A stretch of 64,000 nucleotides of DNA from an uncultured Glaciecola sp. (GCA_937770335.1 CALJHY010000005.1:219221-283220), one strand, 5' to 3'; counted from the first letter of the stretch, positions 4,375 to 36,463 are shown. The notes: generated from the letters alone by a model not told the origin. Program-made: numbers and translations.

Positions 4375-6078
4375 ATGGAATCCCAAAGAAGTCTCTTAGT
4401 TATTGGCTTATTGTTAGTCAGTTATCTATTATGGGTTGAGTATCAGGACGCATACGGCCCAAAGCCAGCAACGATGCCTGTTCAACAAACCACTGCAAGC
4501 CAAGGTGTCCCTAGTGTTTCTGCAGCCAATGGAGAAATACCGACTAGTTCGTCTGTTCCTACTATCGGTAATAGCACTGCGTCTGACATACCATTAGAAC
4601 AATCAATTGTGCCTCAAGTTGGCGCTTTGGAAACCAACAGCGACCGGTTCATTACTGTTAGCACAGACACGCTTGACCTTACTATTGATTTAGTTGGCGG
4701 CGATGTCGTCCGGGCTGACTTATTTAAGTATCCGGTTACTCAAGGTGCCGATGATTCTTATCAGTTATTGAAACCCGATATTGCACGGCTTCATATTGCT
4801 CAAAGTGGACTAGTTGGAAAAGCAGGCCCTGACTCTAATGCTAAAGGACGACCTTTATATAGCACCTCTAAAGCTGATTTTATAATGGACGGCGATACCT
4901 TAAATGTTCCGTTAACCTGGTCTTCCGCAGACGGTCTTAGCGTCACCAAAACATTTGTATTCCAGCGTGACCAACATGTTGTTAAAGTTAACTATGATGT
5001 AAAAAATAACACCAATGCCCCTGCCTCTATGGCTCAGTTTGCACAACTAAAACAAACTACGGCAGATCAGCCCGGTGGCAGTATGTTTATGCCTATTTAT
5101 CGCGGTGGCGCTTACTCTACCCAAGAAGATAAATACGAAAAATTTGGTTTCGGTGATTTTGAAGACGAAAAACTGAATGTCGCCACTATTGGTGGCTGGA
5201 CCGGAATGATTGAGCATTATTTTGTTACTGCTTGGGTACCACCGCAGTTACAAACCAATACTATTACTAGCCGCATTGTTGACAGTAATTTTGCCATCAT
5301 TGGCTATACCGGAGAACCGGTGACAATCGCAGTAAACGGTGAGCGAACCATTTCAAGCCAGTTATACATGGGTCCAAAAACGCAAAGTGTTTTAGCTACT
5401 CTTTCACCAGGACTAGACCTTACCGTTGATTACGGATTTCTTTGGATGATTTCACAACCATTATTCTCATTATTAATATGGATACAAGGCATTGTTATCA
5501 ATTGGGGATTAGCCATTATTTGTGTCACTATTGTTGTCAAAGGTGCCATGTATTGGTTAACCAAGAAGCAGTACGAATCAATGGCCAAGATGCGTAATTT
5601 ACAACCTAAAATGGCGCAATTAAAAGAACGCTTTGGGGATGACCGCCAAAAGATGTCTGCCGCCATGATGGAAATGTATAAGAAAGAAAAAGTAAATCCA
5701 ATGGGTGGTTGCTTCCCTCTCCTACTGCAAATGCCAATATTTTTAGCCCTATATTGGGTGTTATTAGAAAGTGTTGAACTTCGTCACGCAGACTTCATAT
5801 TCTGGATAACAGATCTATCAGTCGCTGATCCATATTATGTATTGCCTATTTTAACTGGCGCTAGCATGTTCTTGTTGCAACGTTTACAGCCGATGACTAT
5901 CACTGACCCCTTGCAGCAAAAAATAATGACTTATATGCCTGTTGCTATGAGTATTTTCTTCTTCTTCTTCCCTGCTGGTTTGGTTTTGTACTGGTTAGTA
6001 AGTAACGTTATTACGCTAATTCAAGCAAAAATCATCTATGCATCGATGGAGAAAAGAGGAATTAGTAGTAAAGGGTAA
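4375..6078 (+). CDS. yidC: Membrane protein insertase YidC
   Basis: 567 aa with an N-terminal TM segment and a large periplasmic domain. The C-terminal region has the conserved GGCFPLLLQMPIFLALY and the 60-kDa insertase core. Confidence 0.95.
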   Translation: MESQRSLLVIGLLLVSYLLWVEYQDAYGPKPATMPVQQTTASQGVPSVSAANGEIPTSSSVPTIGNSTASDIPLEQSIVPQVGALETNSDRFITVSTDTLDLTIDLVGGDVVRADLFKYPVTQGADDSYQLLKPDIARLHIAQSGLVGKAGPDSNAKGRPLYSTSKADFIMDGDTLNVPLTWSSADGLSVTKTFVFQRDQHVVKVNYDVKNNTNAPASMAQFAQLKQTTADQPGGSMFMPIYRGGAYSTQEDKYEKFGFGDFEDEKLNVATIGGWTGMIEHYFVTAWVPPQLQTNTITSRIVDSNFAIIGYTGEPVTIAVNGERTISSQLYMGPKTQSVLATLSPGLDLTVDYGFLWMISQPLFSLLIWIQGIVINWGLAIICVTIVVKGAMYWLTKKQYESMAKMRNLQPKMAQLKERFGDDRQKMSAAMMEMYKKEKVNPMGGCFPLLLQMPIFLALYWVLLESVELRHADFIFWITDLSVADPYYVLPILTGASMFLLQRLQPMTITDPLQQKIMTYMPVAMSIFFFFFPAGLVLYWLVSNVITLIQAKIIYASMEKRGISSKG

Positions 6079-6131
6079 ATGGAAATAAACTATTAAAACT
6101 TATATTCGATTTTACTAAACTCTTTTTGAAA

Positions 6132-6157
6132 AGCCTGCTTACTGCAGGCTTTTTTGT
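6132..6157 (+). terminator. Rho-independent terminator after yidC
   Basis: AGCCTGC (6132-6138) pairs with GCAGGCT (6144-6150) and is followed by a T-run. Confidence 0.7.
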
Positions 6158-6245
6158 CAACAAAATTAAGATTTGCTAAACACTGCAGTAGTTACAAGAT
6201 ACACTAGCTAAATTAACACGCAAAAATACCTTTGGGAGAAAGCAC

Positions 6246-6728
6246 ATGCCTACATTTGATATTGTTTCTGAATTAAACGAAGAAGAAGTCAAGAATGCGA
6301 CTGAAAACGCAAACCGTGAATTAGCAACTCGATTTGATTTCAGAAACGTAGATGCTTCATTCGAATTCAAAGACTCAACAGTAATAATGAGTGCTCAGGA
6401 CGATTTTCAGCTCAAACAAATGCTGGATATACTTCGCAGCGCTTTAGTAAAGCGTGGTGTAAACACCTCATCCATGGACCGCAATGATAGTAATCACACT
6501 GGCAGAACTCACCGTCAAACGATTGGATTCAAACAGGGTATTGACCAACCACTAGCGAAAAAAATAGTTAAACTAATTAAAGATAAAAAGCTCAAAGTCC
6601 AAGCAGCTATTCAGGGCGAGCAGCTCCGTGTTACAGGCAAAAAACGTGACGATTTACAAGACGTCATGGCATTGTTGAAACAAGAAGACTTAGGCCAACC
6701 ATTGCAATTTAATAACTTTCGAGACTAA
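6246..6728 (+). CDS. yajQ: YajQ family nucleotide/cyclic-di-GMP-binding protein (UPF0234)
   Basis: MPTFDIVSE...[13 protein letters not shown]...[24 protein letters not shown]...QFNNFRD matches the remembered YajQ sequence end to end. Confidence 0.85.
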
Positions 6729-24262: not shown

Positions 24263-25102
24263 TTAGTGGGTATGACTATTGTTTTTAGTAGAATCGCCCG
24301 ACATTGGGTTTCCCTGAGTATCATAAAATCCTGAGGCTCCATGCTCGATGAACCCCAAATTCATCATTTTTGTTAAAAATGGATCGGTATGGTCATCACC
24401 AATGTCCGCGTAGTCGGTTGCGTAATAGGCGTACCGTGATTTAAAAAAGGGCGTTATTTGTTTATTAGACAATGTTAAGCTCTTCAAAGACCATGACTCT
24501 AATATGCGAGGAGAGTCTTTCTCTTTAATAATAAAGCTACTTACTAAGTGCAACTCAGAAAACCATGTGACGTCCATAGATAGCCTGTTATCGCTGAATT
24601 GTTTTGTTTCGATGCGATTGCATCCCTCATTAGTCACGTTGGTAGTGGTAAACTTTTTAAGTAGCGAATCACTTATTAATTGATTGCGATAGGACCAGTC
24701 GGATTCTGTCTTGCCGTGCACTTTTTCACCGGGTTGATATTCAATAGCGCGCTCGTGGAGGTCGAAAAATCGAGTGCTTTTTATTTGTTTCGCCTGATTC
24801 AATTGCCAAGATTCAGTGATCCCAGTTTGCGGATATTGATGCGCAACTTCGTTACCGTTTCTGATTAAGGTAACCTGCAATTTTTGCTCTAATCTATTAC
24901 TGGAGTTAGCGCTCTTTGCAATTTCATACACAGCAATAAGCTTGCTTGCTGGTGAAACTGGGTTTGAACATTGTTCATTCGAAACCATCAACTCGCTTGG
25001 TTTTATGAAATCACTTGTATCAATATTGTAAGGACTATTAGCGAATGCGCCAAACGCGGTAACACTTGCGATAAAAAGACCTAGTCTCTTGATGTTCTTC
25101 AT
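24263..25102 (-). CDS. Secreted hypothetical protein
   Basis: Track ORF. The internal ATG at 25102 gives a signal peptide MKNIKRLGLFIASVTAFGAFA. No family was recognised. Confidence 0.5.
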   Translation of the reverse strand: MKNIKRLGLFIASVTAFGAFANSPYNIDTSDFIKPSELMVSNEQCSNPVSPASKLIAVYEIAKSANSSNRLEQKLQVTLIRNGNEVAHQYPQTGITESWQLNQAKQIKSTRFFDLHERAIEYQPGEKVHGKTESDWSYRNQLISDSLLKKFTTTNVTNEGCNRIETKQFSDNRLSMDVTWFSELHLVSSFIIKEKDSPRILESWSLKSLTLSNKQITPFFKSRYAYYATDYADIGDDHTDPFLTKMMNLGFIEHGASGFYDTQGNPMSGDSTKNNSHTH

Positions 25103-25243
25103 CGAATTTACTGTAATTTCTATTAAAAACTTCATAAAGGGTACTTATCCGTTTTAATTTTGTGGTTTTATAATATCCTTTCATGCTTTCATTGCATGCT
25201 AGGTCATGCTTTTCCAATTATCACTATTAGCCTAAACAGAGAG

Positions 25244-25267
25244 AAGCGGATGAATCAACATCCGCTT
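25244..25267 (-). terminator. Hairpin downstream of the alkaline phosphatase operon
   Basis: AAGCGGATG (25244-25252) pairs with CATCCGCTT (25259-25267), a 9-bp perfect stem. The T-tract on the minus strand is weak. Confidence 0.4.
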
Positions 25268-25298
25268 TATATTAAGACCAGTTTAGTAAGACGATAAA

Positions 25299-27269
25299 CT
25301 ATTGAGTATTATTTACGCCACCGCTCAAATCAGACGCAAAGTCCATGACGTGGTAAATTATGTTTTGCTCATTGGTACCGTTTAATAAAAAAGCACCCGG
25401 TCCTTTTGCATAAATTCCTACATCCTCTCCTGAATGCGTCTCACTCGACAACGGCACCAAGGCTTCTTGATGAAAGCCGGCTGATACAGTATCGACGTCC
25501 GTCAAGTTTTGGCGTCCTGCAGCAATTGGCATAGAATAAGAAGCGTCAGCATCAGTAACTTCATTTCCTAAATTTTGGAAACCCCTGCCATTAGTGTAAC
25601 CCAATGTTGTGTATGGTTGTCCATCAGCAGCTAATGAGACTTCTGTTTGACCGACGCTAACCACTTTGCCTAGTATTGGATTGCCACGCTTAGGGTATCC
25701 AGCAATTGTAAATACATGACCATGATCGGCGGTTACGATAATTAATGTATCCTCATCATTGGTCATCTCATCGGCCATGGCAACGGCATCAGAGAACGCA
25801 ATGGTATCAGTTAGAGCGCCAAAGGCACTGCCTGCATGGTGGCTATGATCGATTCGACCGGATTCAATGGATAGGAAAAAGCCCAATGGATTGTTATCCA
25901 AAATTGCAATTGCCTTAGCTGTCATTTCTGCGATGCTCGGCTCACCCGCAATATCATTGGCTCTGTCAGCTTCATACTGCATGTGTGACTCATTGAACAG
26001 ACCAAATACATGAGTCGTGGTTTCAGTATCAATTGCATTGAACCCTATTTGGTCAAATATATAAGAACCTGCAGGATACGTTAGCGACCATTCTGCCGTT
26101 AAGTCGCGGCCATCTGTACGATCTCCCTCTACTGCACTAGCCGCATCCGAGCTATTAAATGCTGCGTCTCTAGGTAAAAAATGTCTTCTACCGCCACCAA
26201 AAACGACTTCCAGTCCATTCACATTGCTACCTTCAAAACGCATTTCTAAATTTGCTTTAAAATTAACAAGTTGTTCTGCTATATCTCTGCAACCCGCTGT
26301 AACTGCGGATTCTGGCATATCAGAGATATCTTCCCAATTACGATCAGCTGATTTTGCATACGTTGCCGCGGGTGTTGCGTGCGTGATCCTAGCTGTGGAT
26401 ATAATACCTGTCGACTTACCTGCTAACTCGGCAAGTTCTAGCGCGGTAACAAGTTCATTTCCCGCGACCGTTGAGCAATTACCTCGTTCAATATTTTCGT
26501 CTACGCCAATAACACCGACATCCGTTTTAACACCGCTTACCATTGCGGTCATGGTGCCAGCTGAGTCAGGTGTTTGTGCATCAACATTGTAGGTTTTTGC
26601 TAAGCCTGCAAATGGAAAGCGGTCAAAGGAAAGACTGTTTTCTTCGCCGAATTGACCATTCATCTGGCCTTCTAATATGCGTGAGGCTGTAACCGTTGAA
26701 ACTCCCATCCCATCACCAACAAACAAGATAATATTCTTAGCAGAACCTTTTAGTTGCTCAATTAAGGCTGCTTGCTGAGCTGGACTGTTAGTTTCATATG
26801 ACGTAACTTGTTGCTCAATGTTGGTATTGCCGTTAGTGCTTTGCGCGCCTGCCCCACTAGTGGCGGTTAGCCATGTATTTTTGTTTTGTGAAACGAGCGC
26901 TGCACCATCTATAAACCATTGGTTATTTAAGCTGGTGAGCAATTGCGTTGAGCTCACTTCGGTAATGCCAGGAGCGCATACGTAATTTGTGCTTGTGATT
27001 TCACTTGGTTCTAACGTACCATTAGTGTCAACGTCAATCCCAGAATCAAATCTCACACCACTATTCGGACAGTTTATGTCGCCAATAATTAAATTGGTTT
27101 GCAATAGTAGGCTGGTGTTTCCGGCCGAACCATCTTGGCCATTAGTACCATTTTGTCCTGTAACTCCATTAATACCGTTAGTACCATTGGTGCCATCATC
27201 ACCTTCTACAAAACAACCATTTAGTCCAATTACGGCAATTGCGATAAGACTGAGTTTTATATTTTTCAT
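25299..27269 (-). CDS. phoA: Alkaline phosphatase (PhoA/PF00245-type) lipoprotein with a collagen-like N-terminal extension
   Basis: The lipobox is IGLNGC. A GXY run follows (GTNGTNGINGVTGQNGTNGQDGSAGN). The catalytic core has FVGDGMG, TPDSAGTMTA, GRIDHSHH and TADHGH. Confidence 0.88.
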   Translation of the reverse strand: MKNIKLSLIAIAVIGLNGCFVEGDDGTNGTNGINGVTGQNGTNGQDGSAGNTSLLLQTNLIIGDINCPNSGVRFDSGIDVDTNGTLEPSEITSTNYVCAPGITEVSSTQLLTSLNNQWFIDGAALVSQNKNTWLTATSGAGAQSTNGNTNIEQQVTSYETNSPAQQAALIEQLKGSAKNIILFVGDGMGVSTVTASRILEGQMNGQFGEENSLSFDRFPFAGLAKTYNVDAQTPDSAGTMTAMVSGVKTDVGVIGVDENIERGNCSTVAGNELVTALELAELAGKSTGIISTARITHATPAATYAKSADRNWEDISDMPESAVTAGCRDIAEQLVNFKANLEMRFEGSNVNGLEVVFGGGRRHFLPRDAAFNSSDAASAVEGDRTDGRDLTAEWSLTYPAGSYIFDQIGFNAIDTETTTHVFGLFNESHMQYEADRANDIAGEPSIAEMTAKAIAILDNNPLGFFLSIESGRIDHSHHAGSAFGALTDTIAFSDAVAMADEMTNDEDTLIIVTADHGHVFTIAGYPKRGNPILGKVVSVGQTEVSLAADGQPYTTLGYTNGRGFQNLGNEVTDADASYSMPIAAGRQNLTDVDTVSAGFHQEALVPLSSETHSGEDVGIYAKGPGAFLLNGTNEQNIIYHVMDFASDLSGGVNNTQ

Positions 27270-27284
27270 TCTAATTCTCCCTAA

Positions 27285-28868
27285 TTATTGGTTGATAAGA
27301 TCAAGTGCTTGATTAATGACGTGAAATAAAGCGCTTTGCTCAATAACACCTTGTACTAACTGCGCACCTGGACCATTTGCGTGTAATGCTACGTCTTCAC
27401 CGCTATGGGTTTCGGAGCTTAGTGGTACCAACGCTTCTTGGTGAAAGCCTGATGATTCAGTGTCAATGGCAGATATGTCTTTGCGACCTGCATTTATAGG
27501 CATTGCGTATGAGGCATCGGCATCTGTTTCATTACCCAAATCCATCATTCCGCGGCCATTGGTATAGCCTAGCGTTGTGTAGGGTAGGCCATCGGCATCT
27601 TGAGTTGGCGTATCTGAATTAACCCCTATCACTTTGCCTAGAATAGGGTTACCGCGTTTCGGATACCCTGCAATCGTGAATACATGACCGTGGTCAGCGG
27701 TAACGAGAATTAGGGTGTCTTCACTGTTGGTCATGTCATAGGCTTTTTTAACTGCATTGGATAGTTCAATGGCATCAGTAAGTGCGTTATATGCGCTACC
27801 AGCGTGATGGCCATGATCGATGCGGCCAGATTCAACCATCAAGAAGAAACCTTTTTCTTGATTATCTAATATATCGATCGCTTTTTCGGTCATCTGCGTC
27901 AAGCTAGGTTCGCCTGCGATATCATTGCTACGGTCAGCTTCATATTGCATATGAGACTCGTTGAATAGACCAAACACCTTCGAAGTCGTTGCCGCATCAA
28001 TTGCGTCAAATCCTGTTTGGTCAAAAACGTAATTTCCAAGCGGGTATTTTGCTTTCCATTCTGCAGTAAGGTCTCGCCCATCCGTGCGATCACCTTCAAC
28101 TGCGCTAGCTGCATCGGCGCTATTGAATGCTGCATCTCTAGGGAGAAAGTGACGGCGTCCGCCACCAAAAGCGACGTCAATTCCGTCTACATCAACTCCG
28201 GTATAACGCTTTTCCAAATAGTTTTCAAAATTGACTAACTGATCAGCAATATCCTTACAACCTCCAGTTATTGCCGCTTCAGGCATATCAGATATGTCTT
28301 CCCAGTTTCTATCTGCAGATTTAGCATACGTTGCCGCTGGAGTAGCGTGAGTAATGCGTGCGGTTGAAATAATACCTGTGGCTAGGCCTTTAATTTCAGC
28401 CAGTTCGAGTGCAGTGATAACTTCATTCCCAGCAACGGTAGAGCAATCACCACGACTAATATCTTCATCAACGCCAATAACGCCCACGTCAGTTTTCAAG
28501 CCTGACATCATTGCGGTCATTGTGCCGGCAGAGTCGGGTGTCTGTGCATTAACGTTATAAGTCTTGACCAGCGCTGTGTGAGGAAATGATTCAAAACTCA
28601 GGTAACCTTCTTCACCTAGTTGGTCATTTAACTGTCCTTGTAAAATTCGAGCAGATGTTAGTGTTGAAATACCCATTCCATCACCAATAAATACAATGAC
28701 ATTTTTAGCTTTAAAGCGGTTATTAGTTTGCAGTTTTTCCATCAATTTAGTCTGAGCTTCGGTGTACCAAGCATTTGATGTTTGGTGCTCAGGCAGCGGT
28801 GTTGCACCAGCAGCCGCACTAAGGCCTGCTGTAAGTGATAAAATAGCTATCTTTCTGATTAAATTCAT
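27285..28868 (-). CDS. phoA: Alkaline phosphatase (PhoA/PF00245-type), secreted paralog
   Basis: The signal peptide from the ATG at 28868 is MNLIRKIAILSLTAGLSAAAGA; the frame opens at 28889. It has the same catalytic motifs (FIGDGMG, TPDSAGTMTA, GRIDHGHH, TADHGH). It lies 15 nt upstream of the second paralog. Confidence 0.9.
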   Translation of the reverse strand: MNLIRKIAILSLTAGLSAAAGATPLPEHQTSNAWYTEAQTKLMEKLQTNNRFKAKNVIVFIGDGMGISTLTSARILQGQLNDQLGEEGYLSFESFPHTALVKTYNVNAQTPDSAGTMTAMMSGLKTDVGVIGVDEDISRGDCSTVAGNEVITALELAEIKGLATGIISTARITHATPAATYAKSADRNWEDISDMPEAAITGGCKDIADQLVNFENYLEKRYTGVDVDGIDVAFGGGRRHFLPRDAAFNSADAASAVEGDRTDGRDLTAEWKAKYPLGNYVFDQTGFDAIDAATTSKVFGLFNESHMQYEADRSNDIAGEPSLTQMTEKAIDILDNQEKGFFLMVESGRIDHGHHAGSAYNALTDAIELSNAVKKAYDMTNSEDTLILVTADHGHVFTIAGYPKRGNPILGKVIGVNSDTPTQDADGLPYTTLGYTNGRGMMDLGNETDADASYAMPINAGRKDISAIDTESSGFHQEALVPLSSETHSGEDVALHANGPGAQLVQGVIEQSALFHVINQALDLINQ

Positions 28869-28962
28869 AATTTTTCCTAGAAAATCCAAGTCAAGTTAAT
28901 CGATTGAGGGCGAACTGATGAAAATAAGGTTTCATCGAACTGATGCATATTAGAAATTAATT

Positions 28963-29035
28963 ATGACAATTTCGGGACATAAAAATGAACAATTAGTGTA
29001 TAAAAAGTGACAGTAATTTTACGTTTTCATGACAA
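28963..29035 (-). promoter_or_regulatory. Pho-box array (PhoB-type binding sites) upstream of the alkaline phosphatase operon
   Basis: The minus strand carries seven heptamers at exact 11-bp phasing. They read TTGTCAT-gaaa-ACGTAAA-atta-CTGTCAC-tttt-TATACAC-taat-TGTTCAT-tttt-ATGTCCC-gaaa-TTGTCAT. Three are 6-7/7 matches to CTGTCAT. A TAATAT -10 candidate lies at 28952-28947. Confidence 0.65.
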
Positions 29036-29379
29036 GGAGCGGGATGAGTAACTTACAGCATATTAGAAAACAGACGAGTTGGAGAACAATACTCTAAAGT
29101 AAAAGAATAAGTGTAAGCATAAGCATAACGTTGAGGTTATTGAAAAGCGTTATCTATTAGAAACAAGTTTTGGGCGATGGTTGTGTTCGTGTATAAGTAA
29201 ACGAATGTCATTTAGCTGTCGAATTTCTCGAGACACTTTGTTAGAGGAAATATAACCAAAACAAACGAGGTTTAAGATGTGTAGAAGACGTTTCAGTTCC
29301 AAATCCTAATATTCTTAAAGTCAAAATCGATATCTTGAGTATGCAGCCGCAACCACTCCATTAAGCGCAATTGATTGTG

Positions 29380-29496
29380 TGATCTTCGCTGATTAACATG
29401 AGTTGTTGTTTTGGATTCAAACGAGTATTGTTTTACTTAAATGGCTAACGCAAGGAGACATGGATTGTTGTATCAAAACCGCAGTAAATTCAAAGT
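29380..29496 (+). repeat. Conserved leader module upstream of VCR-like attC (copy 1)
   Basis: It aligns with 32351-32468 over about 117 bp and with 30331-30407 over about 78 bp. AAACGAGTAT sits 78 nt before the attC. It contains AAGGAGA followed by an ATG. Confidence 0.6.
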
Positions 29497-29610
29497 GCAT
29501 AACAAACGCATTACTTTACTCCCTTTGGTTGCTGGGACAACTTTACGTACGCATTTCGCGTTGCTCAAAAGCTGCACCCATCAACTTACCCTTTATGCGG
29601 GGCGTTGTCT
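29497..29610 (+). repeat. attC site, VCR-like long class (114 bp)
   Basis: The 5' end is GCATAACAAACGCAT and the 3' end is ATGCGGGGCGTTGTCT. The ends are imperfect inverted repeats with unpaired bases. It shares the internal GCGCATTTCGCG core with the sites at 30408 and 32469. Confidence 0.7.
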
Positions 29611-29630
29611 CTCAGTTAGATTTATATCCA

Positions 29631-30119
29631 ATGAATATTAGAGAAATAGATGAGTCAGAATTTGAAGCTATATGGCCGATTTTTAGACCAATAGCTAGGG
29701 CGGGGGAAACCTACGCTTTTTCAAAGGGTATTTCGGAAAGTGAAGCTAAGAAAGTTTGGGTTGATACGCCACGCAAAACCTTTATTGCTGAAGATGATGG
29801 GCAGATTCTAGGAACCTACTACCTTAAAACTAACCAAGCAGGTCCCGGAATGCATGTTTGTAATTGTGGTTACATGGTTTCATCTTCGGCACAAGGCAAA
29901 GGAGTGGCGACTGCCATGTGCATTCATTCTCAGCAAGTAGCAAAAAATCTAGGATATGAAGCAATGCAATTTAACTATGTTGCATCAAGTAACGAAGGTG
30001 CTATTCGGCTATGGTTAAAGCTCGGTTTTGATATAGTAGGACGTTTACCACGAGCTTTTAATCATCCAACAAAAGGGTACATAGATGCGTTGGTTATGTA
30101 CAAATGGCTTGAGACATAA
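29631..30119 (+). CDS. GNAT family N-acetyltransferase (cassette gene)
   Basis: The ATG at 29631 lies 21 nt after the attC. The protein reads MNIREIDESEFEAIW... and has the acetyl-CoA motif region QGKGVATAM. The track ORF start at 29403 reads through the attC and is rejected. Confidence 0.8.
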   Translation: MNIREIDESEFEAIWPIFRPIARAGETYAFSKGISESEAKKVWVDTPRKTFIAEDDGQILGTYYLKTNQAGPGMHVCNCGYMVSSSAQGKGVATAMCIHSQQVAKNLGYEAMQFNYVASSNEGAIRLWLKLGFDIVGRLPRAFNHPTKGYIDALVMYKWLET

Positions 30120-30179
30120 CAAAAACACTAACCGGACATTGGACAGAGCGCCCAAGGCCCCTTATGTATGGTGTTATGT
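30114..30179 (+). repeat. attC site, short class (66 bp)
   Basis: ACATAAC...TAACCGGACATTGG...GGTGTTATGT. The GNAT stop codon TAA lies inside the 5' heptamer. It is about 80% alike to the site at 31027. Confidence 0.7.
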
Positions 30180-30330
30180 GGTGTCTATTAAAGGAATTAT
30201 ATGAACAAAAAAATTGAAAGACTTGAAGAAAAAACCAAACGTTATGACCTACAATTATTAATTATTTTGGGGTTCGCGAGCGCATAATATTTGATTCCTA
30301 CTGGACAGCATCGGTTGCTGTATAGACACT

Positions 30331-30407
30331 AAACGAGTATTGCTTTACCAAAATGGTTAACTCAAGGAAACAGGGAATGTTTGGTCAAATCGCATTGAAT
30401 TCTGGCT
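30331..30407 (+). repeat. Conserved leader module upstream of VCR-like attC (copy 2)
   Basis: AAACGAGTAT sits 77 nt before the attC. By eye it is about 75-80% identical to copies 1 and 3, with indels that break any common reading frame. Confidence 0.6.
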
Positions 30408-30521
30408 ACCTAACAAACGCATTAGCTCACTCCATTCGGTCGCTGGAACAAGTTTACGGGCGCATTTCGCGTTGCCCAAAAGCTGCCCCCATAAACTTGC
30501 CCGATATGCGTGGTGTTATAA
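30408..30521 (+). repeat. attC site, VCR-like long class (114 bp)
   Basis: ACCTAAC, a perfect RYYYAAC, begins the site, and TAACAAACGCAT follows. The 3' end ATGCGTGGTGTTATAA carries a GTTATAA core. TAACA/TGTTA and ACGCAT/ATGCGT pair around a bulge. Confidence 0.8.
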
Positions 30522-30537
30522 CTACAAGGAATACTGA

Positions 30538-31026
30538 GTGAAAGTCTTTACCGTACTAATTGTTCTACTTTGTCTTTTTGGTTGTGATGTTAATACTGTA
30601 AAAGTGAAAAGGTAGGGCTCTATAGATAATGATTTCGTTGAAGATCCGATGCCCGATGATTATAAAAAGGTCATTCTCACCTCCAATTTAATAATAGACT
30701 TGTTAAAAAAGAGTGACTTTAAAACTATAAATACTCATTTTGTTCACGAAACTGCACGTGAAACGATCACAGAATCCGAATTGGCTAATATTTTTGACCA
30801 ACTAGAAAAGCAAATTGGTACAATTGATATTTACTTAACAAGCCAATGGGGTATTCGACCAAAATCGAGAGACGGAGTGCTTTATACATACTCTGTCAAA
30901 ATTGTTAAGCATCAAAACGCTTATATGAATTATTTTTTTGTGTTCGACCTAGCTTTGTCCGACAGTGAGATAGTAGGATTGTATTTTAAGGAAAAAAATG
31001 GCGTTCGTTCAGCCAGTGAGTTGTAG
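30538..31026 (+). pseudogene. Cassette lipoprotein gene interrupted by an in-frame TAG
   Basis: A GTG at 30538 encodes VKVFTVLIVLLCLFGC, a lipoprotein signal plus lipobox. A TAG follows at 30613-30615. The same frame continues into the 125-aa track ORF at 30649-31026. Confidence 0.55.
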
Positions 31027-31092
31027 ATATAACAAATCTATTAACCGGACATTGGCAAGAGCAGCCAACGCCGGTTATGGAAAGTGTTATGT
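31027..31092 (+). repeat. attC site, short class (66 bp)
   Basis: ATATAACAaatctatTAACCGG...CCGGTTAtggaaagTGTTATGT. It has two nested perfect inverted repeats, ATAACA/TGTTAT and TAACCGG/CCGGTTA. Confidence 0.8.
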
Positions 31093-31152
31093 CAGAGTGG
31101 ATTATTAAGCCGCAAATAAAGCGCAAACATCCTGAAATTTATATATAGGAAA

Positions 31153-31407
31153 ATGGTTTTGAAACGAATTATATTGCTTTTATCTTTTTTTGTATGCATA
31201 CAAGGTTGTCAGGCAAACTATGGTTTAACTGATAAGCACAGGACTGATGGCGCTCACCCGAGGGTTGAATTTGGAGCTACTTGCAATCTAAATTACAACA
31301 ACGAATCTCGGGTTAGTACTTGCCCAATAGGCGGCCAAGATCTATTAGGAACGACTTGCTCATGTAACACTGAAAATGGCATCCAATATGGGGTTGTGGG
31401 TAGATGA
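31153..31407 (+). CDS. Small Cys-rich lipoprotein (cassette gene)
   Basis: 84 aa with the signal/lipobox LLLSFFVCIQGC. It is bounded by attC sites. Confidence 0.55.
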   Translation: MVLKRIILLLSFFVCIQGCQANYGLTDKHRTDGAHPRVEFGATCNLNYNNESRVSTCPIGGQDLLGTTCSCNTENGIQYGVVGR

Positions 31408-31445
31408 CGTAAAGGGCGAGAATGGATAAAACTCGTTATTTCAAG

Positions 31446-31532
31446 AGTTAACCTCACCTATTTTTAATGCCCCATTTTCGCGTTATTCAAAAGCAACACA
31501 AATAAACTTGCCCTCTATGCGGGCTGTTAGGA
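31446..31532 (+). repeat. attC site (87 bp) sharing its 3' half with the VCR-like class
   Basis: The 5' end is AGTTAAC. The 3' half reads CATTTTCGCGTT...AAATAAACTTGCCCTCTATGCGGGCTGTTAGGA, which aligns with the 3' halves of the long sites. Confidence 0.6.
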
Positions 31533-32125
31533 CTCACTCAATTATCACATATCGCTTACAAATCATCCTATTGATTGTCCTTGTGACCGTCAGCTCGATA
31601 GTAGCGGCTCAAACAGGTCGTGTCGCCTTGGATCAAGCAATTTATGGATTCGAAAAAGCCCTTCCTCAAGGCTGGAAAATCATAGAGCGGCAATTGGATA
31701 CCGTCCCATATGGCCATCACTTCTGCGACGACTATAGGGGGCCGAAAGGTACAAAACTCATCGTTATCGGACCAGAGCCCGTCCAAGTTGTATGGACGTC
31801 TCTCTCGGGAGAGACAATATCAACAACTCTCGCAAAGGAATCGTTAGAACTTTGGTTTATGCCCCCGAATTATCGAGACAGTCAGACGGCTTGGCTATGT
31901 TTACATCGTCCAATTCAGCCAGTCGCAATTCTTGAGGATCCATCAATTGTCGTCTTTGGGCGTCCAAGTCATCAACTTAATTCAAAAACAGCATGGCTTG
32001 AATTGCTCACTAAAGCCCAAGCAATAAGTTGGCCGGAATCGCCGGCGAATGACCGTTCCAAAATCTCTTGGTCTAACTGGCAGCAGGATATCCGTATCGC
32101 CGTGCAAAAATGGCTGCAAAAGTGA
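31517..32125 (+). CDS. Secreted hypothetical protein (cassette gene, about 50% GC)
   Basis: The ATG at 31517 lies inside the 3' end of the preceding attC. It gives the signal peptide MRAVRTHSIITYRLQIILLIVLVTVSSIVAAQ. The cassette is clearly more GC-rich than its neighbours. Confidence 0.6.
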   Translation: MRAVRTHSIITYRLQIILLIVLVTVSSIVAAQTGRVALDQAIYGFEKALPQGWKIIERQLDTVPYGHHFCDDYRGPKGTKLIVIGPEPVQVVWTSLSGETISTTLAKESLELWFMPPNYRDSQTAWLCLHRPIQPVAILEDPSIVVFGRPSHQLNSKTAWLELLTKAQAISWPESPANDRSKISWSNWQQDIRIAVQKWLQK

Positions 32126-32126
32126 G

Positions 32127-32185
32127 GCCTAATCTCCAGTCAACCCAGATATGCCAATGCGCGCTGGTTACTGGGAGCGTTAATT
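32127..32185 (+). repeat. attC site (59 bp)
   Basis: GCCTAATCTCCAGTCAACC...GGTTACTGGGAGCGTTAATT. The long imperfect inverted repeat starts 2 nt after the stop codon of the preceding ORF. Confidence 0.65.
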
Positions 32186-32350
32186 GCCGAGGGCAATAAC
32201 GCTAACAGGTTCGATATATCAATAAGGCTTAACCATAAAAGCATAGGAACAAGATCGAATGGAAGTGAGTGGTCTTTCATGATATTACTTGAAGCATTGT
32301 TTAGGCAGTTCAAGTATCAGCACAAACAGCGCGGCTGCGATAAACACTCA

Positions 32351-32468
32351 GTGGTCTTCGCTAATTAACACCAGTTGTTGTTTCAACTTCAAACGAGTAT
32401 ATTTTTACCTAAATGGATAACGCAAGGAGACAAGGAATGTTTAGTCAAAACCGTATTAAATTCCGGCT
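32351..32468 (+). repeat. Conserved leader module upstream of VCR-like attC (copy 3)
   Basis: AAACGAGTAT sits 78 nt before the attC. The stretch GTGGTCTTCGCTAATTAACACCAGTTGTTG matches GTGATCTTCGCTGATTAACATGAGTTGTTG of copy 1. Confidence 0.6.
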
Positions 32469-32581
32469 ACCTAATAAAAGCATCAGCTCATTCCCTGCGG
32501 TCGCTGGGACAATTTTACGAGCGCATTTCGCTTCGCTCAGGAACTGCAACGATAAACTTGCCCCTATGCGGGGTGTTATAC
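32469..32581 (+). repeat. attC site, VCR-like long class (113 bp, more diverged)
   Basis: ACCTAATAAAAGCAT...GCGCATTTCGCTTCGC...AAACTTGCCCCTATGCGGGGTGTTATAC. It is collinear with the sites at 29497 and 30408. Confidence 0.65.
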
Positions 32582-32598
32582 AAAAAGAGAGGACACAA

Positions 32599-33231
32599 AT
32601 GAAGTTCTATACGGTTTTAGTTTTATGTTTTTTTGCATTTAGTGCTGTTGCAAGTAAAAAAGCGATTACGGATGAAGGTGATGTTGTAGTTTTAAATGAC
32701 GATGGAACCTGGATATATGAAAACGAAAAGGCTGAAAATGAAATTAAACTGGATATGAATCCATTAGCTTTCTCTAAGAATTCTGACTCTAAATTTATGC
32801 TAAAAAGTGGAAAAACCAACAATGCTTTTTGGATAAATCCCAAAAAATGGACATTCAAAAAAAATGATAATGAACATGAGGCTGCAGAATATACATTCGA
32901 TGTTAAAGGGAGTGACCTATATGGAATGGTTATTTCTGAACAGTTAGAAATTAAACTTGAAACTCTTGTAGAGCTAGCATTCGATAATGCAAAAAGTGCT
33001 GCGCCGGATATGAAAGTTGTAAAAAAAGAATATCGTATGGTGAATAATCAGAAGGTTATCTACATGGAAATGAAAGGAACAATTCAAAGTATGAAAATCA
33101 CATATTTAGGTTACTACTTTTCTGATCCATCAGGTTCAACTCAATACTTAACTTATACAGGTACTAATTTAGTTAAAAAATATAGAAAAGATATAAATGA
33201 TTTTTTAAATGGTTTCGTAAGTCAATTGTAA
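32599..33231 (+). CDS. Secreted hypothetical protein (cassette gene)
   Basis: The RBS AGAGAGG precedes the ATG at 32599. The signal peptide is MKFYTVLVLCFFAFSAVASKK. The upstream part of the track ORF (32413-32598) is an attC read-through. Confidence 0.65.
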   Translation: MKFYTVLVLCFFAFSAVASKKAITDEGDVVVLNDDGTWIYENEKAENEIKLDMNPLAFSKNSDSKFMLKSGKTNNAFWINPKKWTFKKNDNEHEAAEYTFDVKGSDLYGMVISEQLEIKLETLVELAFDNAKSAAPDMKVVKKEYRMVNNQKVIYMEMKGTIQSMKITYLGYYFSDPSGSTQYLTYTGTNLVKKYRKDINDFLNGFVSQL

Positions 33232-33235
33232 TTTT

Positions 33236-33327
33236 GTACAACAACTTGTTTAAACGGAATAATAACAGTTGGCCATCACTTCGCGATTATAGCAAACCAT
33301 TATTTTCCGCTTAGCAAGTCGTTCTGT
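33236..33327 (+). repeat. attC site (92 bp)
   Basis: The 5' arm is TGTACAACAACTTGTTTAAACGGAATAAT. It is the imperfect reverse complement of the 3' arm ATTATTTTCCGCTTAGCAAGTCGTTCTGTGCA. The site begins 5 nt after the stop codon. Confidence 0.65.
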
Positions 33328-33345
33328 GCAAGATGGAGGTGCAAC

Positions 33346-33846
33346 ATGAAAGTACATTCAAGACCGTTAAATGTCGCTGATTTTGAACAGATGAGAAAAA
33401 TCTTATTCCGAGATGGCTTAAATGAATGGAATTACATTACAGATGAAAGCATCGATCTGCAGTTTCAGCTAATACGAGATGGAAAAGCGATTGCTATTTT
33501 AGCCGAAGCGAGTGAAATCACAGGGTTAGCGATTTTAATTTTTAAAGATGCATGTCCTTCAAATCTACGTCAATACTCCACTTTATCAACAATGGCATAT
33601 ATTAATGATGTGGTAGTTAATATGAACTATAGTGGCAAAGGAATTGGAAGCACGTTACTACAAAAGGCAATTGAGTTGGCTCAAAAAGAGCAATGTGAAC
33701 ATGTATATATTGAACGCCACGAAGAAAATTTAGCATCCGTAGGGATGATGAGAAAGGCATCGTTTAAAATTGTTGATACGTTTTATGATCCAAACAAACG
33801 AACAACAGGCTCAAGAAATACATCATTGCTAGTACATAGTAAATAG
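33346..33846 (+). CDS. GNAT family N-acetyltransferase (cassette gene)
   Basis: The RBS GGAGG precedes the ATG at 33346. Motif A reads VVVNMNYSGKGIGSTLLQKAIELA. Confidence 0.8.
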   Translation: MKVHSRPLNVADFEQMRKILFRDGLNEWNYITDESIDLQFQLIRDGKAIAILAEASEITGLAILIFKDACPSNLRQYSTLSTMAYINDVVVNMNYSGKGIGSTLLQKAIELAQKEQCEHVYIERHEENLASVGMMRKASFKIVDTFYDPNKRTTGSRNTSLLVHSK

Positions 33847-33971
33847 TAAGTCATTTAAAAGGACTAAATACAGCATACTGTTGGCTTAGCTCCATTTTAG
33901 ACCGATAAATTTAGCCGCTTGATGAGGCGTCATGTTCATAATCGCCATCTGCTAACTAAATAGGTAAATTT

Positions 33972-34247
33972 ATGCTGATATACTTACATATCATCATGGG
34001 AGCATTTGCTCTGATCTCAGGAATAACTGCATTTTCTGCTAAGAAGGGAGCCTCCCTACATAAAAAGAGTGGGCTGATTTTTGTTGTCACTATGTTAATC
34101 ATGTCTAGTACAGGCGCATTTCTCGCTGCTTTAAACGGAGAAAAGTTGAATATTGTGGCAGGCTGTCTCACTTTTTATCTTGTGGCAACAGCTTACTTAG
34201 TCGTTCACTCATTGAAAAAAATGATCGCCTTTACAACACGCTATTAA
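33972..34247 (+). CDS. Small membrane protein, possibly a truncated gene
   Basis: 91 aa with three hydrophobic segments. The downstream frame (34246-34340) looks like a shifted continuation. No clear attC follows it. Confidence 0.35.
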   Translation: MLIYLHIIMGAFALISGITAFSAKKGASLHKKSGLIFVVTMLIMSSTGAFLAALNGEKLNIVAGCLTFYLVATAYLVVHSLKKMIAFTTRY

Positions 34248-34334
34248 TGGTCTTTGGGCTTATGGCGGCTTATATTTCCGACACTCATTTGCTTCTTAGA
34301 AGGCTGAGGTATCGAGCAAGAATATGCGGTACAT

Positions 34335-34390: not shown

Positions 34391-36463
<2,073 letters not shown>

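Follow-up and report, generated by a model that had tools for sequence, protein, structure and literature searches.

The integrase of integrons, IntI, recombines attC sites, folded into hairpins from their bottom strand, with attI, and the promoter-less cassettes become stacked in one orientation. Clusters of attC sites without an integron integrase (CALINs) have two or more attC sites in the same orientation, spaced by less than 4 kb, and no intI, and 15 of 279 of them (about 5%) were found to have an intI pseudogene within 10 kb (Cury et al. 2016, PMC4889954). The ilvD integron of Xanthomonas, according to a summary of earlier work, occupies a fixed locus, with intI inactivated in most strains and arrays specific to each lineage (Gillings et al. 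2005, via bioRxiv 10.1101/2025.06.18.660453). Earlier reports describe integrons in Alteromonas and, in a Glaciecola strain, attC sites. The locus considered here lies in a 64,000-nucleotide (nt) stretch of DNA from an uncultured Glaciecola sp. (GCA_937770335.1 CALJHY010000005.1:219221-283220), called the window below. Positions 29377-34270 of its + strand are an integron cassette array, very probably the remainder of a sedentary chromosomal integron, ancestral to the Glaciecola/Brumicola lineage (Alteromonadaceae), that has decayed at a locus flanked by the atp operon and a fadH-like gene.

The cassettes of the window, like those of CALINs, are mostly of unassigned function, and none is an antibiotic-resistance cassette. 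The locus differs from CALINs in that it has an adjoining remnant of intI and in that its decay in situ can be traced from relatives; the remnant, at 25 codons, would fail the 50% profile-coverage requirement of the CALIN survey (PMC4889954). The closest evolutionary parallel is the ilvD integron of the summary cited above, likewise an ancestral integron at a fixed locus with arrays that differ by lineage. Here, however, the host belongs to the Alteromonadaceae, the locus lies downstream of atpC, in a gidA-gidB-parA-parB-atp block, and the deletion junctions are shared as a mosaic among contigs that are about 95% identical. The long attC sites of the locus also resemble Vibrio cholerae repeats (VCRs), which we take to be long (about 114 nt) and homogeneous within an array, starting with TAACAAACGC and ending with GCGGGG(T/C)GTTA. 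As in the sedentary integrons of Vibrio, related arrays are large and contain toxin-antitoxin cassettes (as does a metagenome contig, L008, described below). Unlike the case in Vibrio, the integrase is about 55-60% identical to its more distant IntI matches, and the long attC is usually preceded by a conserved leader of about 190 nt. The literature searched held no description of a comparable leader for VCRs, nor of the atpC-linked integron of Glaciecola and Brumicola and its leader.

The array is a 5-kb run of short + strand open reading frames (ORFs) split by repeats, extending from a pair of alkaline-phosphatase genes (24263-28889, - strand) to the fadH-like reductase gene (34391-36463, - strand). 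The original prediction, made from the sequence alone, had called it CALIN-like, with no tyrosine-recombinase ORF on the left, where intI would be expected. The CALIN-like reading is borne out by at least two + strand attC sites less than 4 kb apart and by the lack of an integrase ORF; with no intI ORF beside the array, the window does not hold a complete integron. The left flank, however, does contain a relic of intI at 29296-29370 (- strand), consisting of 75 nt, i.e., 25 codons (LRLMEWLRLHTQDIDFDFKNIRIWN) followed by a stop, that correspond to IntI residues 134-158. By tblastn, the relic is 80-88% identical over the 25 codons to four intact IntI proteins (P0001, P0002, P0008, and P0009; E = 3e-9), and no other sequence in the 64 kb resembled intact IntI. 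The segment continues into longer intI pseudogenes in two related contigs (L004 and L005), and in the window it runs directly into mid-cassette sequence. A search of the window for the attI-like sequence that Glaciecola sp. MH2013 and L005 have in common (GGGTAATARRTTGTTATGT), allowing up to 3 mismatches, found no match.

Relatives show what preceded the relic. Six metagenomic contigs (L001-L006) encode the exact AtpD of the window and are about 95% identical to it in DNA. In L001-L004, atpC is followed by a frameshifted tyrosine-recombinase pseudogene on the opposite strand and then by a cassette array that runs to fadH. The intI fragment reconstructed from these contigs matches V. cholerae IntI4 (PDB 2A3V) over residues 134-317 (E = 1.2e-56) and the integron-integrase model TIGR02249 with 216 bits. 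In L005 and L006 the phosphatase block is present, as it is in the window, and is followed by N-terminal fragments of intI (TIGR02249 positions 26-103), an attI-like sequence (GGGTAATAGATTGTTATGT), and a first cassette that differs from the window's. The closest intact IntI proteins are 73-77% identical. In MH2013, an intact intI of 321 amino acids (aa) adjoins atpC, after gidA-gidB-parA-parB and the atp operon, and the array is divergent; L008 has the same layout, with a 306-aa intI and an array in which a gene for reverse transcriptase accompanies HigBA and ParE-type toxin cassettes. The order atpC-intI-array in these two marks the locus as a sedentary chromosomal integron of the lineage, and the same locus is recognizable in L001-L004 and, as atpC-phosphatase block-intI pseudogene-array, in L005 and L006. 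The MH2013 array has at least 46 attC sites of the long class, exceeding the criterion for sedentary integrons of more than 19 homogeneous attC sites, a size that the window array, with eight or nine sites of at least four sequence types, does not reach.

The left junction of the window, at the phosphatase block, is that of L005 and L006, while its right junction, the fusion to the middle of a cassette, is that of L001-L004, as seen in L004 (window 29296-29376 compared with L004 12606-12680 and L005 near 17840). Since the window combines both deletion junctions, and since these lineages are about 95% identical, recombination within the population is indicated. The block at the left junction (23515-29296, 5.8 kb) comprises a 290-aa gene and two PhoA-family genes. 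It is absent from L001-L004 and MH2013, where atpC abuts intI, and so looks like an insertion that replaced the 3' half of intI.

These comparisons show that in the ancestor intI lay on the opposite strand beside atpC. They also show that, in the lineage of the window, the 5.8-kb block replaced the 3' half of intI and a second deletion took the 5' half along with attI and the start of the array, leaving codons 134-158 fused to the middle of a cassette. The array would since have been decaying with neither a local integrase nor a Pc promoter, and those attC sites that still look intact (S1-S4 and S8, below) would be recombinable only by an integrase supplied from elsewhere.

The eight attC sites of the original prediction are all present where it had placed them, all on the + strand. 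Three belong to a long class (class A): S1 (29497-29610; 114 nt; end heptamers R'' GCATAAC and R' GTTGTCT; GTT core at 29604-29606), S3 (30408-30521; 114 nt; ACCTAAC and GTTATAA; 30515-30517), and S7 (32469-32581; 113 nt; ACCTAAT and GTTATAC; 32575-32577). Two belong to a short class (class B) of 66 nt: S2 (30114-30179; ACATAAC, which contains the stop codon of the preceding ORF, and GTTATGT; 30173-30175) and S4 (31027-31092; ATATAAC and GTTATGT; 31086-31088). S6 (32127-32185; 59 nt; GCCTAAT and GTTAATT; core G at 32179) and S8 (33236-33327; 92 nt; GTACAAC and GTTCTGT; 33321-33323) complete the set together with S5 (31446-31532, or 31431-31532 with its leader motif; 87 nt; AGTTAAC and GTTAGGA; 31526-31528), which is defective. 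In S5 the start motif of the leader is fused to what is only the 3' half (L'-R') of an attC of class A: the left arm is absent, and the AAC heptamer is not complementary to the right arm. A ninth site may lie at 33847-33935 (+ strand); it is degenerate, with no clear R'' and with GTC as its core where L001 and L002 have GTT.

Much of what had been said of these sites stands, with qualifications. The distinction of two repeat classes, one of them the 66-bp class, was confirmed by a repeat search, which found a long family in three copies (29379-29612, 30309-30523, and 32351-32578), with an additional 59-nt partial copy at 31476-31534, and a 68-nt family in two copies (30112-30179 and 31025-31092). 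The long repeat reaches about 120-150 nt to the left of the attC start first given. The three long sites are indeed 113-114 bp in length, but they do not all share one beginning: S7 starts with TAATAAAAGC rather than TAACAAACGC. The description of the first heptamer as RYYYAAC-like fits S1-S5 and S8, which have both AAC and GTT, but not S6 and S7, which have AAT; the four flanking positions match the consensus loosely. A stop codon lies in or next to the heptamer, as claimed, in S2, S4, S6, and S8. Finally, the ends were said to be imperfect inverted repeats, and S2, S3, S4, and S8 do fold end to end, but S5 has no left arm to match its right.

The identity of the class A sites was examined with a covariance model (R1) built from 60 distinct class A copies, with no sequence from the window included. 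The copies came from MH2013, MF2-115, Brumicola blandensis, metagenome-assembled genomes, and metagenome contigs, so that the model is specific to the lineage and is not the attC model of IntegronFinder. A search of the whole window on both strands, with filters off, matched S3 with 104.6 bits (E = 1.7e-23), S1 with 93.3 bits (E = 1e-20), S7 with 80.6 bits (E = 1.6e-17), S4 with 24.8 bits (E = 0.0012), and S2 with 17.9 bits (E = 0.065). All five are on the + strand within 3.1 kb. The best match outside the array reached 13.7 bits (E = 0.72), and the rest of the 64 kb has none that is significant. A lack of significant covariance-model matches had been named at the outset as evidence that would count against attC sites; with R1, three were found with E below 1e-16.

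The fold of class A, as seen in the 60 copies from outside the window, pairs the R box (columns 2-9 with 110-117), the L box (12-20 with 99-106), and an inner stem (39-57 with 81-98). In this register 85.7% of positions pair, compared to 29-43% after the 3' partners are slid by 1-3 columns. Column 17 stands unpaired between the L-box helices, and the left arm has 18-22 extra bases. Sixteen pairs show changes on both sides, and the observed covariation score was reached by none of 500 shuffles. The L box, for example, is 95% paired, its CGCAT/ATGCG having become TACAT/ATGTA in seven copies. When read on the top strand, the cells that are not Watson-Crick pairs include 115 C.A and 39 G.T. This bias is what one would expect if the bottom strand were the one to fold, since a C.A of the top strand corresponds to a G.T of the bottom one; pairing is 85.7% for the top strand and 89.4% for the bottom. 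The bias indirectly suggests that the bottom strand of class A attC is the strand that folds and recombines.

Single-stranded folding of the bottom strands of the window's own sites gives end-to-end hairpins for S2, S3, S4, and S8, with z from -1.5 to -4.9 (S3 -3.2, S4 -4.85, S8 -3.5). S1 and S7 fold end to end in part. For S5 and S6, folding of the bottom strand produced no end-to-end hairpin. S5 was considered as a short functional attC, an idea that was dropped: the window copy does not fold, while the copy in another contig, L029, has an internal hairpin. In L029 the counterpart of S4 (535-603) is a perfect palindrome, its left arm matching its right exactly; the window copy keeps the unpaired spacer. 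The palindrome may have arisen through hairpin-templated repair or gene conversion.

The edges of cassettes provide evidence of a different kind, as at three junctions beyond the R1 matches homology to other contigs begins or ends exactly at a GTT core. The homology of cassette 5 to L027 and L028, where its context is unrelated, covers 31526-32183 only, from the G of GTTAGGAC to GTTAA, so that the GTT of S5 is the exact left edge of that homology. L029 holds cassette 5 along with cassettes 3 and 4, and there the counterpart of S6 has a canonical R'', GCCTAAC. L002 has five cassettes that are absent from the window, and the junction falls on CGTT at 33320-33323, within S8, whose counterpart in L001 and L002 has R'' GTATAAC and R' GTTATAT. 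Cassette 5 and the L002 junction both place the cassette boundary between the G and the TT of the core, as one would predict for integrase action. Only about six of the eight sites look recombination-competent or independently verified as cassette ends.

The array shows signs of decay. R'' has gone from AAC to AAT in S6 and in S7 (which has a further mismatch in L''), GTT has become GTC in the ninth site, and S5 is halved. The gene of cassette 3 has TAG at 30613 where L029 has TCG (L029 has a separate nonsense mutation of its own), and the start codon of cassette 5 is ATT at 31541-31543, as against ATG in L027 and L029. A third gene, encoding a DUF2306 protein, has been cut by a deletion that also took distal cassettes present in L002. 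The tally is four attC sites mutated or truncated and three damaged cassette genes, besides the loss of attI. These changes would be expected to disable recombination or expression, and inactivating changes in four sites and three genes suggest relaxed selection.

The array might be something other than an integron that decayed in place. Insertion of cassettes by an integrase encoded elsewhere, leaving a CALIN at a secondary site, has been documented (Cury et al. 2016, PMC4889954), and L027 and L014 (a separate locus of MH2013) resemble small clusters of that kind at other loci. For the window, though, such an origin is very improbable: the relic of intI abuts the array, an intact intI and array occupy the same locus in MH2013 and L008, and pseudogenes of intI are found there in L001-L006. 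It is because of the relic, together with intact and pseudogenised intI at the same position beside atpC in relatives, that decay in place is preferred to deposition. Scarcely credible is the notion that the repeats are an unrelated interspersed family (a miniature inverted-repeat transposable element, a repetitive extragenic palindromic element, or a small-RNA gene) that merely resembles attC. One could point to the length of the long repeat in relatives, about 300 nt and far more than that of an attC, and to a generic scan of our own (AAC...GTT heptamers plus complementarity of the arms), which did no better than chance, finding three matches per strand compared to about 2.8 for both strands in shuffled sequence; it caught only S4 and must be considered insensitive. 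But such a family would hardly be confined to one orientation, in arrays beside intI, or show compensatory pairing of R and L boxes with a bottom-strand bias, nor would the homology of cassettes stop at G|TT. Furthermore, leader and attC are separable, since 9 of 71 class A sites have no leader and the leader in L014 is joined to a different attC. Scans of Rfam at gathering and E-value thresholds gave no match to any family, Rfam apparently having no attC model.

A third possibility is that the array still works as a reservoir, its cassettes excised and reinserted by an intact integrase encoded elsewhere in the genome. S1-S4 and S8 retain AAC, GTT, and pairing of the arms; cassette sets vary between close relatives with junctions at cores; and about half of CALINs lie in replicons that also encode IntI (Cury et al., PMC4889954). 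Yet there is no other IntI-like sequence in the 64 kb, the six close contigs hold only intI pseudogenes at the locus, and inactivating changes have reached four sites and three genes. A working reservoir is therefore judged unlikely. The variation itself is real: the locus is not invariant, as would have spoken against an integron, for comparison of related contigs (a comparison of close strains had been proposed) shows the array to vary among close relatives, and cassette sets differ among contigs with identical AtpD. Two junctions in the array fall at attC cores, consistent with integrase action. Several observations, however, weigh against a decayed integron or narrow what can be claimed for it. 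The class B sites match R1 weakly (E = 0.001 and 0.065), S5 and the possible ninth site fail the structural tests, and the search for an active intI covers 64 kb of the genome. Also, the one indel compared between close relatives, a 2.5-kb segment of L001 that L002 lacks, is flanked by leader repeats of 224 nt, 98% identical (L001 13771-13994 and 16312-16535), so homologous recombination, with no integrase, can also reshape the array and may account for some of its variation.

The leader is the sole potentially new element of the locus. In relatives, units of about 300 nt follow unrelated ORFs; the final 115 nt of such a unit are the class A attC, and the leader makes up some 190 nt of the unit, with motifs GCTCGTTCTTTCAAGAGTCAC at -188 from attC, TTTTCGGGTTCGCGAGCGCAT at -143, AAACGAGTATTGTTTTACCTAAATGG at -77, and the Shine-Dalgarno-like AAGGAG at -49. 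Of the class A sites, 71 have sufficient sequence upstream for comparison: 38 carry every motif, 10 carry a second variant of the leader, and the nine mentioned above carry no motif. In L014 the leader precedes a different, short attC. A scan of the genome collection found the core of the leader in no genus other than Glaciecola and Brumicola, apart from one contig labelled Flavobacterium. Leaders of this kind also lie within 1-9470 of contig L007. The window has leaders, all on the + strand, before S1 (truncated; core 29419-29444, Shine-Dalgarno 29452-29457, TTG 29465), before S3 (motif TTTTGGGGTTCGCGAGCGCAT 30265-30285, core 30331-30356, Shine-Dalgarno 30364-30369, ATG 30377), and before S7 (core 32391-32416, Shine-Dalgarno 32424-32429, ATG 32437).

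A start codon follows the Shine-Dalgarno-like motif by 7 bases in all 66 unique units (ATG in 43, TTG in 22, GTG in 1), and in 56 of the 66 AAGGAG or AAGGAA lies 7 nt before the start codon. In 55 of 58 units the frame thus begun stays open across the entire attC. It ends with TAG at core positions 3-5 in 21 units and no more than 30 nt beyond the crossover in 26. The same behaviour is seen in every one of the eight copies of the second leader variant. Given column-specific substitution rates, 23.7 new stop codons would be expected in this frame, and one appeared; the other two frames have 42 (46.3 expected) and 27 (29.7 expected). A control with randomised bases matched the observed depletion in 0.1% of trials, although the copies of the leader are related and the counts are therefore not independent events. 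In the window, the frame at 29441-29641 stops 5 nt after the ATG (29634) of a gene encoding a GNAT acetyltransferase, that at 30353-30541 ends with a TGA overlapping a GTG at 30538, and the frame from 32413 is in frame with the ATG at 32599.

The leader ORF shows no excess of variation at third positions (entropies 0.76, 0.65, and 0.75; the lengths of indels are uninformative), which speaks against a conventional protein, and the lack of periodicity by codon position suggests that the sequence of the peptide is not itself under selection. Other possibilities were considered and set aside. The leader has no match to a sigma-70 consensus promoter in the window or in MH2013. As a structured RNA it fares no better, with fold z-scores of +1.2 and -0.8, an empty alignment fold, and no Rfam match. 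Nor is there an inverted repeat or pair of cores that would betray a hidden short attC between ORF and leader.

Perhaps the leader is a built-in expression device, in which a ribosome binding site and start codon would cause a frame of about 47 codons to be translated through the attC, unfolding the hairpin in the mRNA and passing ribosomes to the next cassette. We put this forward tentatively, as less than an even bet; translational coupling by the leader is plausible but unproven. The nearest precedent is ORF-11 of attI1. According to a review, its ATG lies 8 nt after a Shine-Dalgarno sequence and its stop is usually a TAG at core positions 3-5; short ORFs inside attC sites are proposed to relieve the block that hairpins pose to ribosomes (PMC8876359). 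ORF-11 and ORF-18 share with the leader a Shine-Dalgarno sequence some 7-8 nt before the start, a short ORF across the recombination site, and frequently a TAG at core positions 3-5 or a stop just inside the next cassette. The leader differs from ORF-11 in that it lies before attC rather than in attI, in that its ORF spans the whole 114-nt attC (about 47 codons), and in that most cassettes of a chromosomal array have a copy of it in front. The leader could also be a footprint of the way this lineage builds new cassettes, given that one and the same 300-nt tail follows unrelated genes.

Eight full and two partial cassettes survive in the window, with eight or nine attC sites between them. As had been predicted, translations and family searches show short ORFs that include two GNATs and several lipoproteins or secreted proteins. 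The first, partial cassette is a truncated leader (29377-29496) joined directly to the intI relic. Cassette 1 encodes a GNAT acetyltransferase (29634-30119; PF00583, E = 8e-15) that is 95% identical to the first cassette of L001-L004. Cassettes 2 and 6 have no gene and are recognized by leader motifs (leader at 30257-30407 and part of a leader at 32351-32468, respectively). Cassette 3 carries a pseudogene of a DUF3887-like lipoprotein (30538-31026, with the in-frame TAG at 30613-30615), and cassette 4 a gene for an 84-aa lipoprotein of no assigned function, conserved in L029 (31153-31407). Cassette 5 (31527-32179; 47% GC), delimited by the homology to L027 and L028, encodes a secreted protein of 205 aa with no family match, and the gene of cassette 7, known from its translation (32599-33231; 31% GC), encodes another, of 210 aa, also with no family match; L001 and L002 have a cassette 87.5% identical to the latter, placed elsewhere in their arrays. 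Cassette 8 encodes the second GNAT acetyltransferase (33346-33846; PF00583, E = 3e-13). Cassette 9 is a remnant identified by family match as the N-terminal 91 codons of the DUF2306 membrane protein (33972-34247), cut by the deletion at about 34268-34278 that ends the array (window 34268|34278 corresponds to L002 19147|20918). All are on the + strand. A scan of the cassette proteins for defence systems gave only a weak match of GNAT type. Whole cassettes range in GC from 31% to 47%, compared to 40.6% for the window. The jump in GC between cassettes that was first noted is present, at values slightly different from the approximately 50% and 32% claimed: 47.1% for 31517-32125 and 30.3% for 32599-33231.

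Other observations concern the surroundings of the array and its relatives. The two phosphatase genes to its left are paralogues, about 69% identical to each other, and upstream of the phosphatase gene, at 28963-29035 (- strand), are seven 7-nt units at 11-nt spacing (TTGTCAT/CTGTCAC and similar). These look like tandem Pho boxes, fitting the Pho regulation originally proposed for this flank. In L027, which comes from a different genome, at least two attC-like sites within 5200-6650 bound a GNAT cassette and the homologue of cassette 5, between a gene for serine dehydratase and one of the SWEET family. The cluster looks like a small CALIN at a secondary site and may point to a source of cassette 5 with higher GC. 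The reverse transcriptase of L008 (7747-8568; 273 aa, RVT_1) lies in the opposite orientation within the array, among the HigBA and ParE cassettes, and may belong to a group IIC-attC intron. The contig labelled Flavobacterium sp. W21_SRS_FM6 (L010; NZ_JBGQOM010000019.1) has leaders and attC sites of the Glaciecola type, and the same assembly encodes a Glaciecola-type IntI (P0045), which suggests contamination or mislabelling.

At this locus, relatives allow a stepwise reconstruction of how a working integron became an orphan array, in support of the loss of integrase as a source of CALINs. Since a relic of 25 codons would escape standard searches for pseudogenes, that origin may be under-counted. 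The comparison also locates a lineage of chromosomal integrons beside the atp operon in Glaciecola and Brumicola. If the leader ORF does act as proposed, it would provide a way to translate cassettes far from Pc past the hairpins of attC, and the leader would be an array-wide, attC-linked counterpart of the ORF-11 of attI1. The leader also gives a concrete sequence with which to test ideas on the origin of cassettes.

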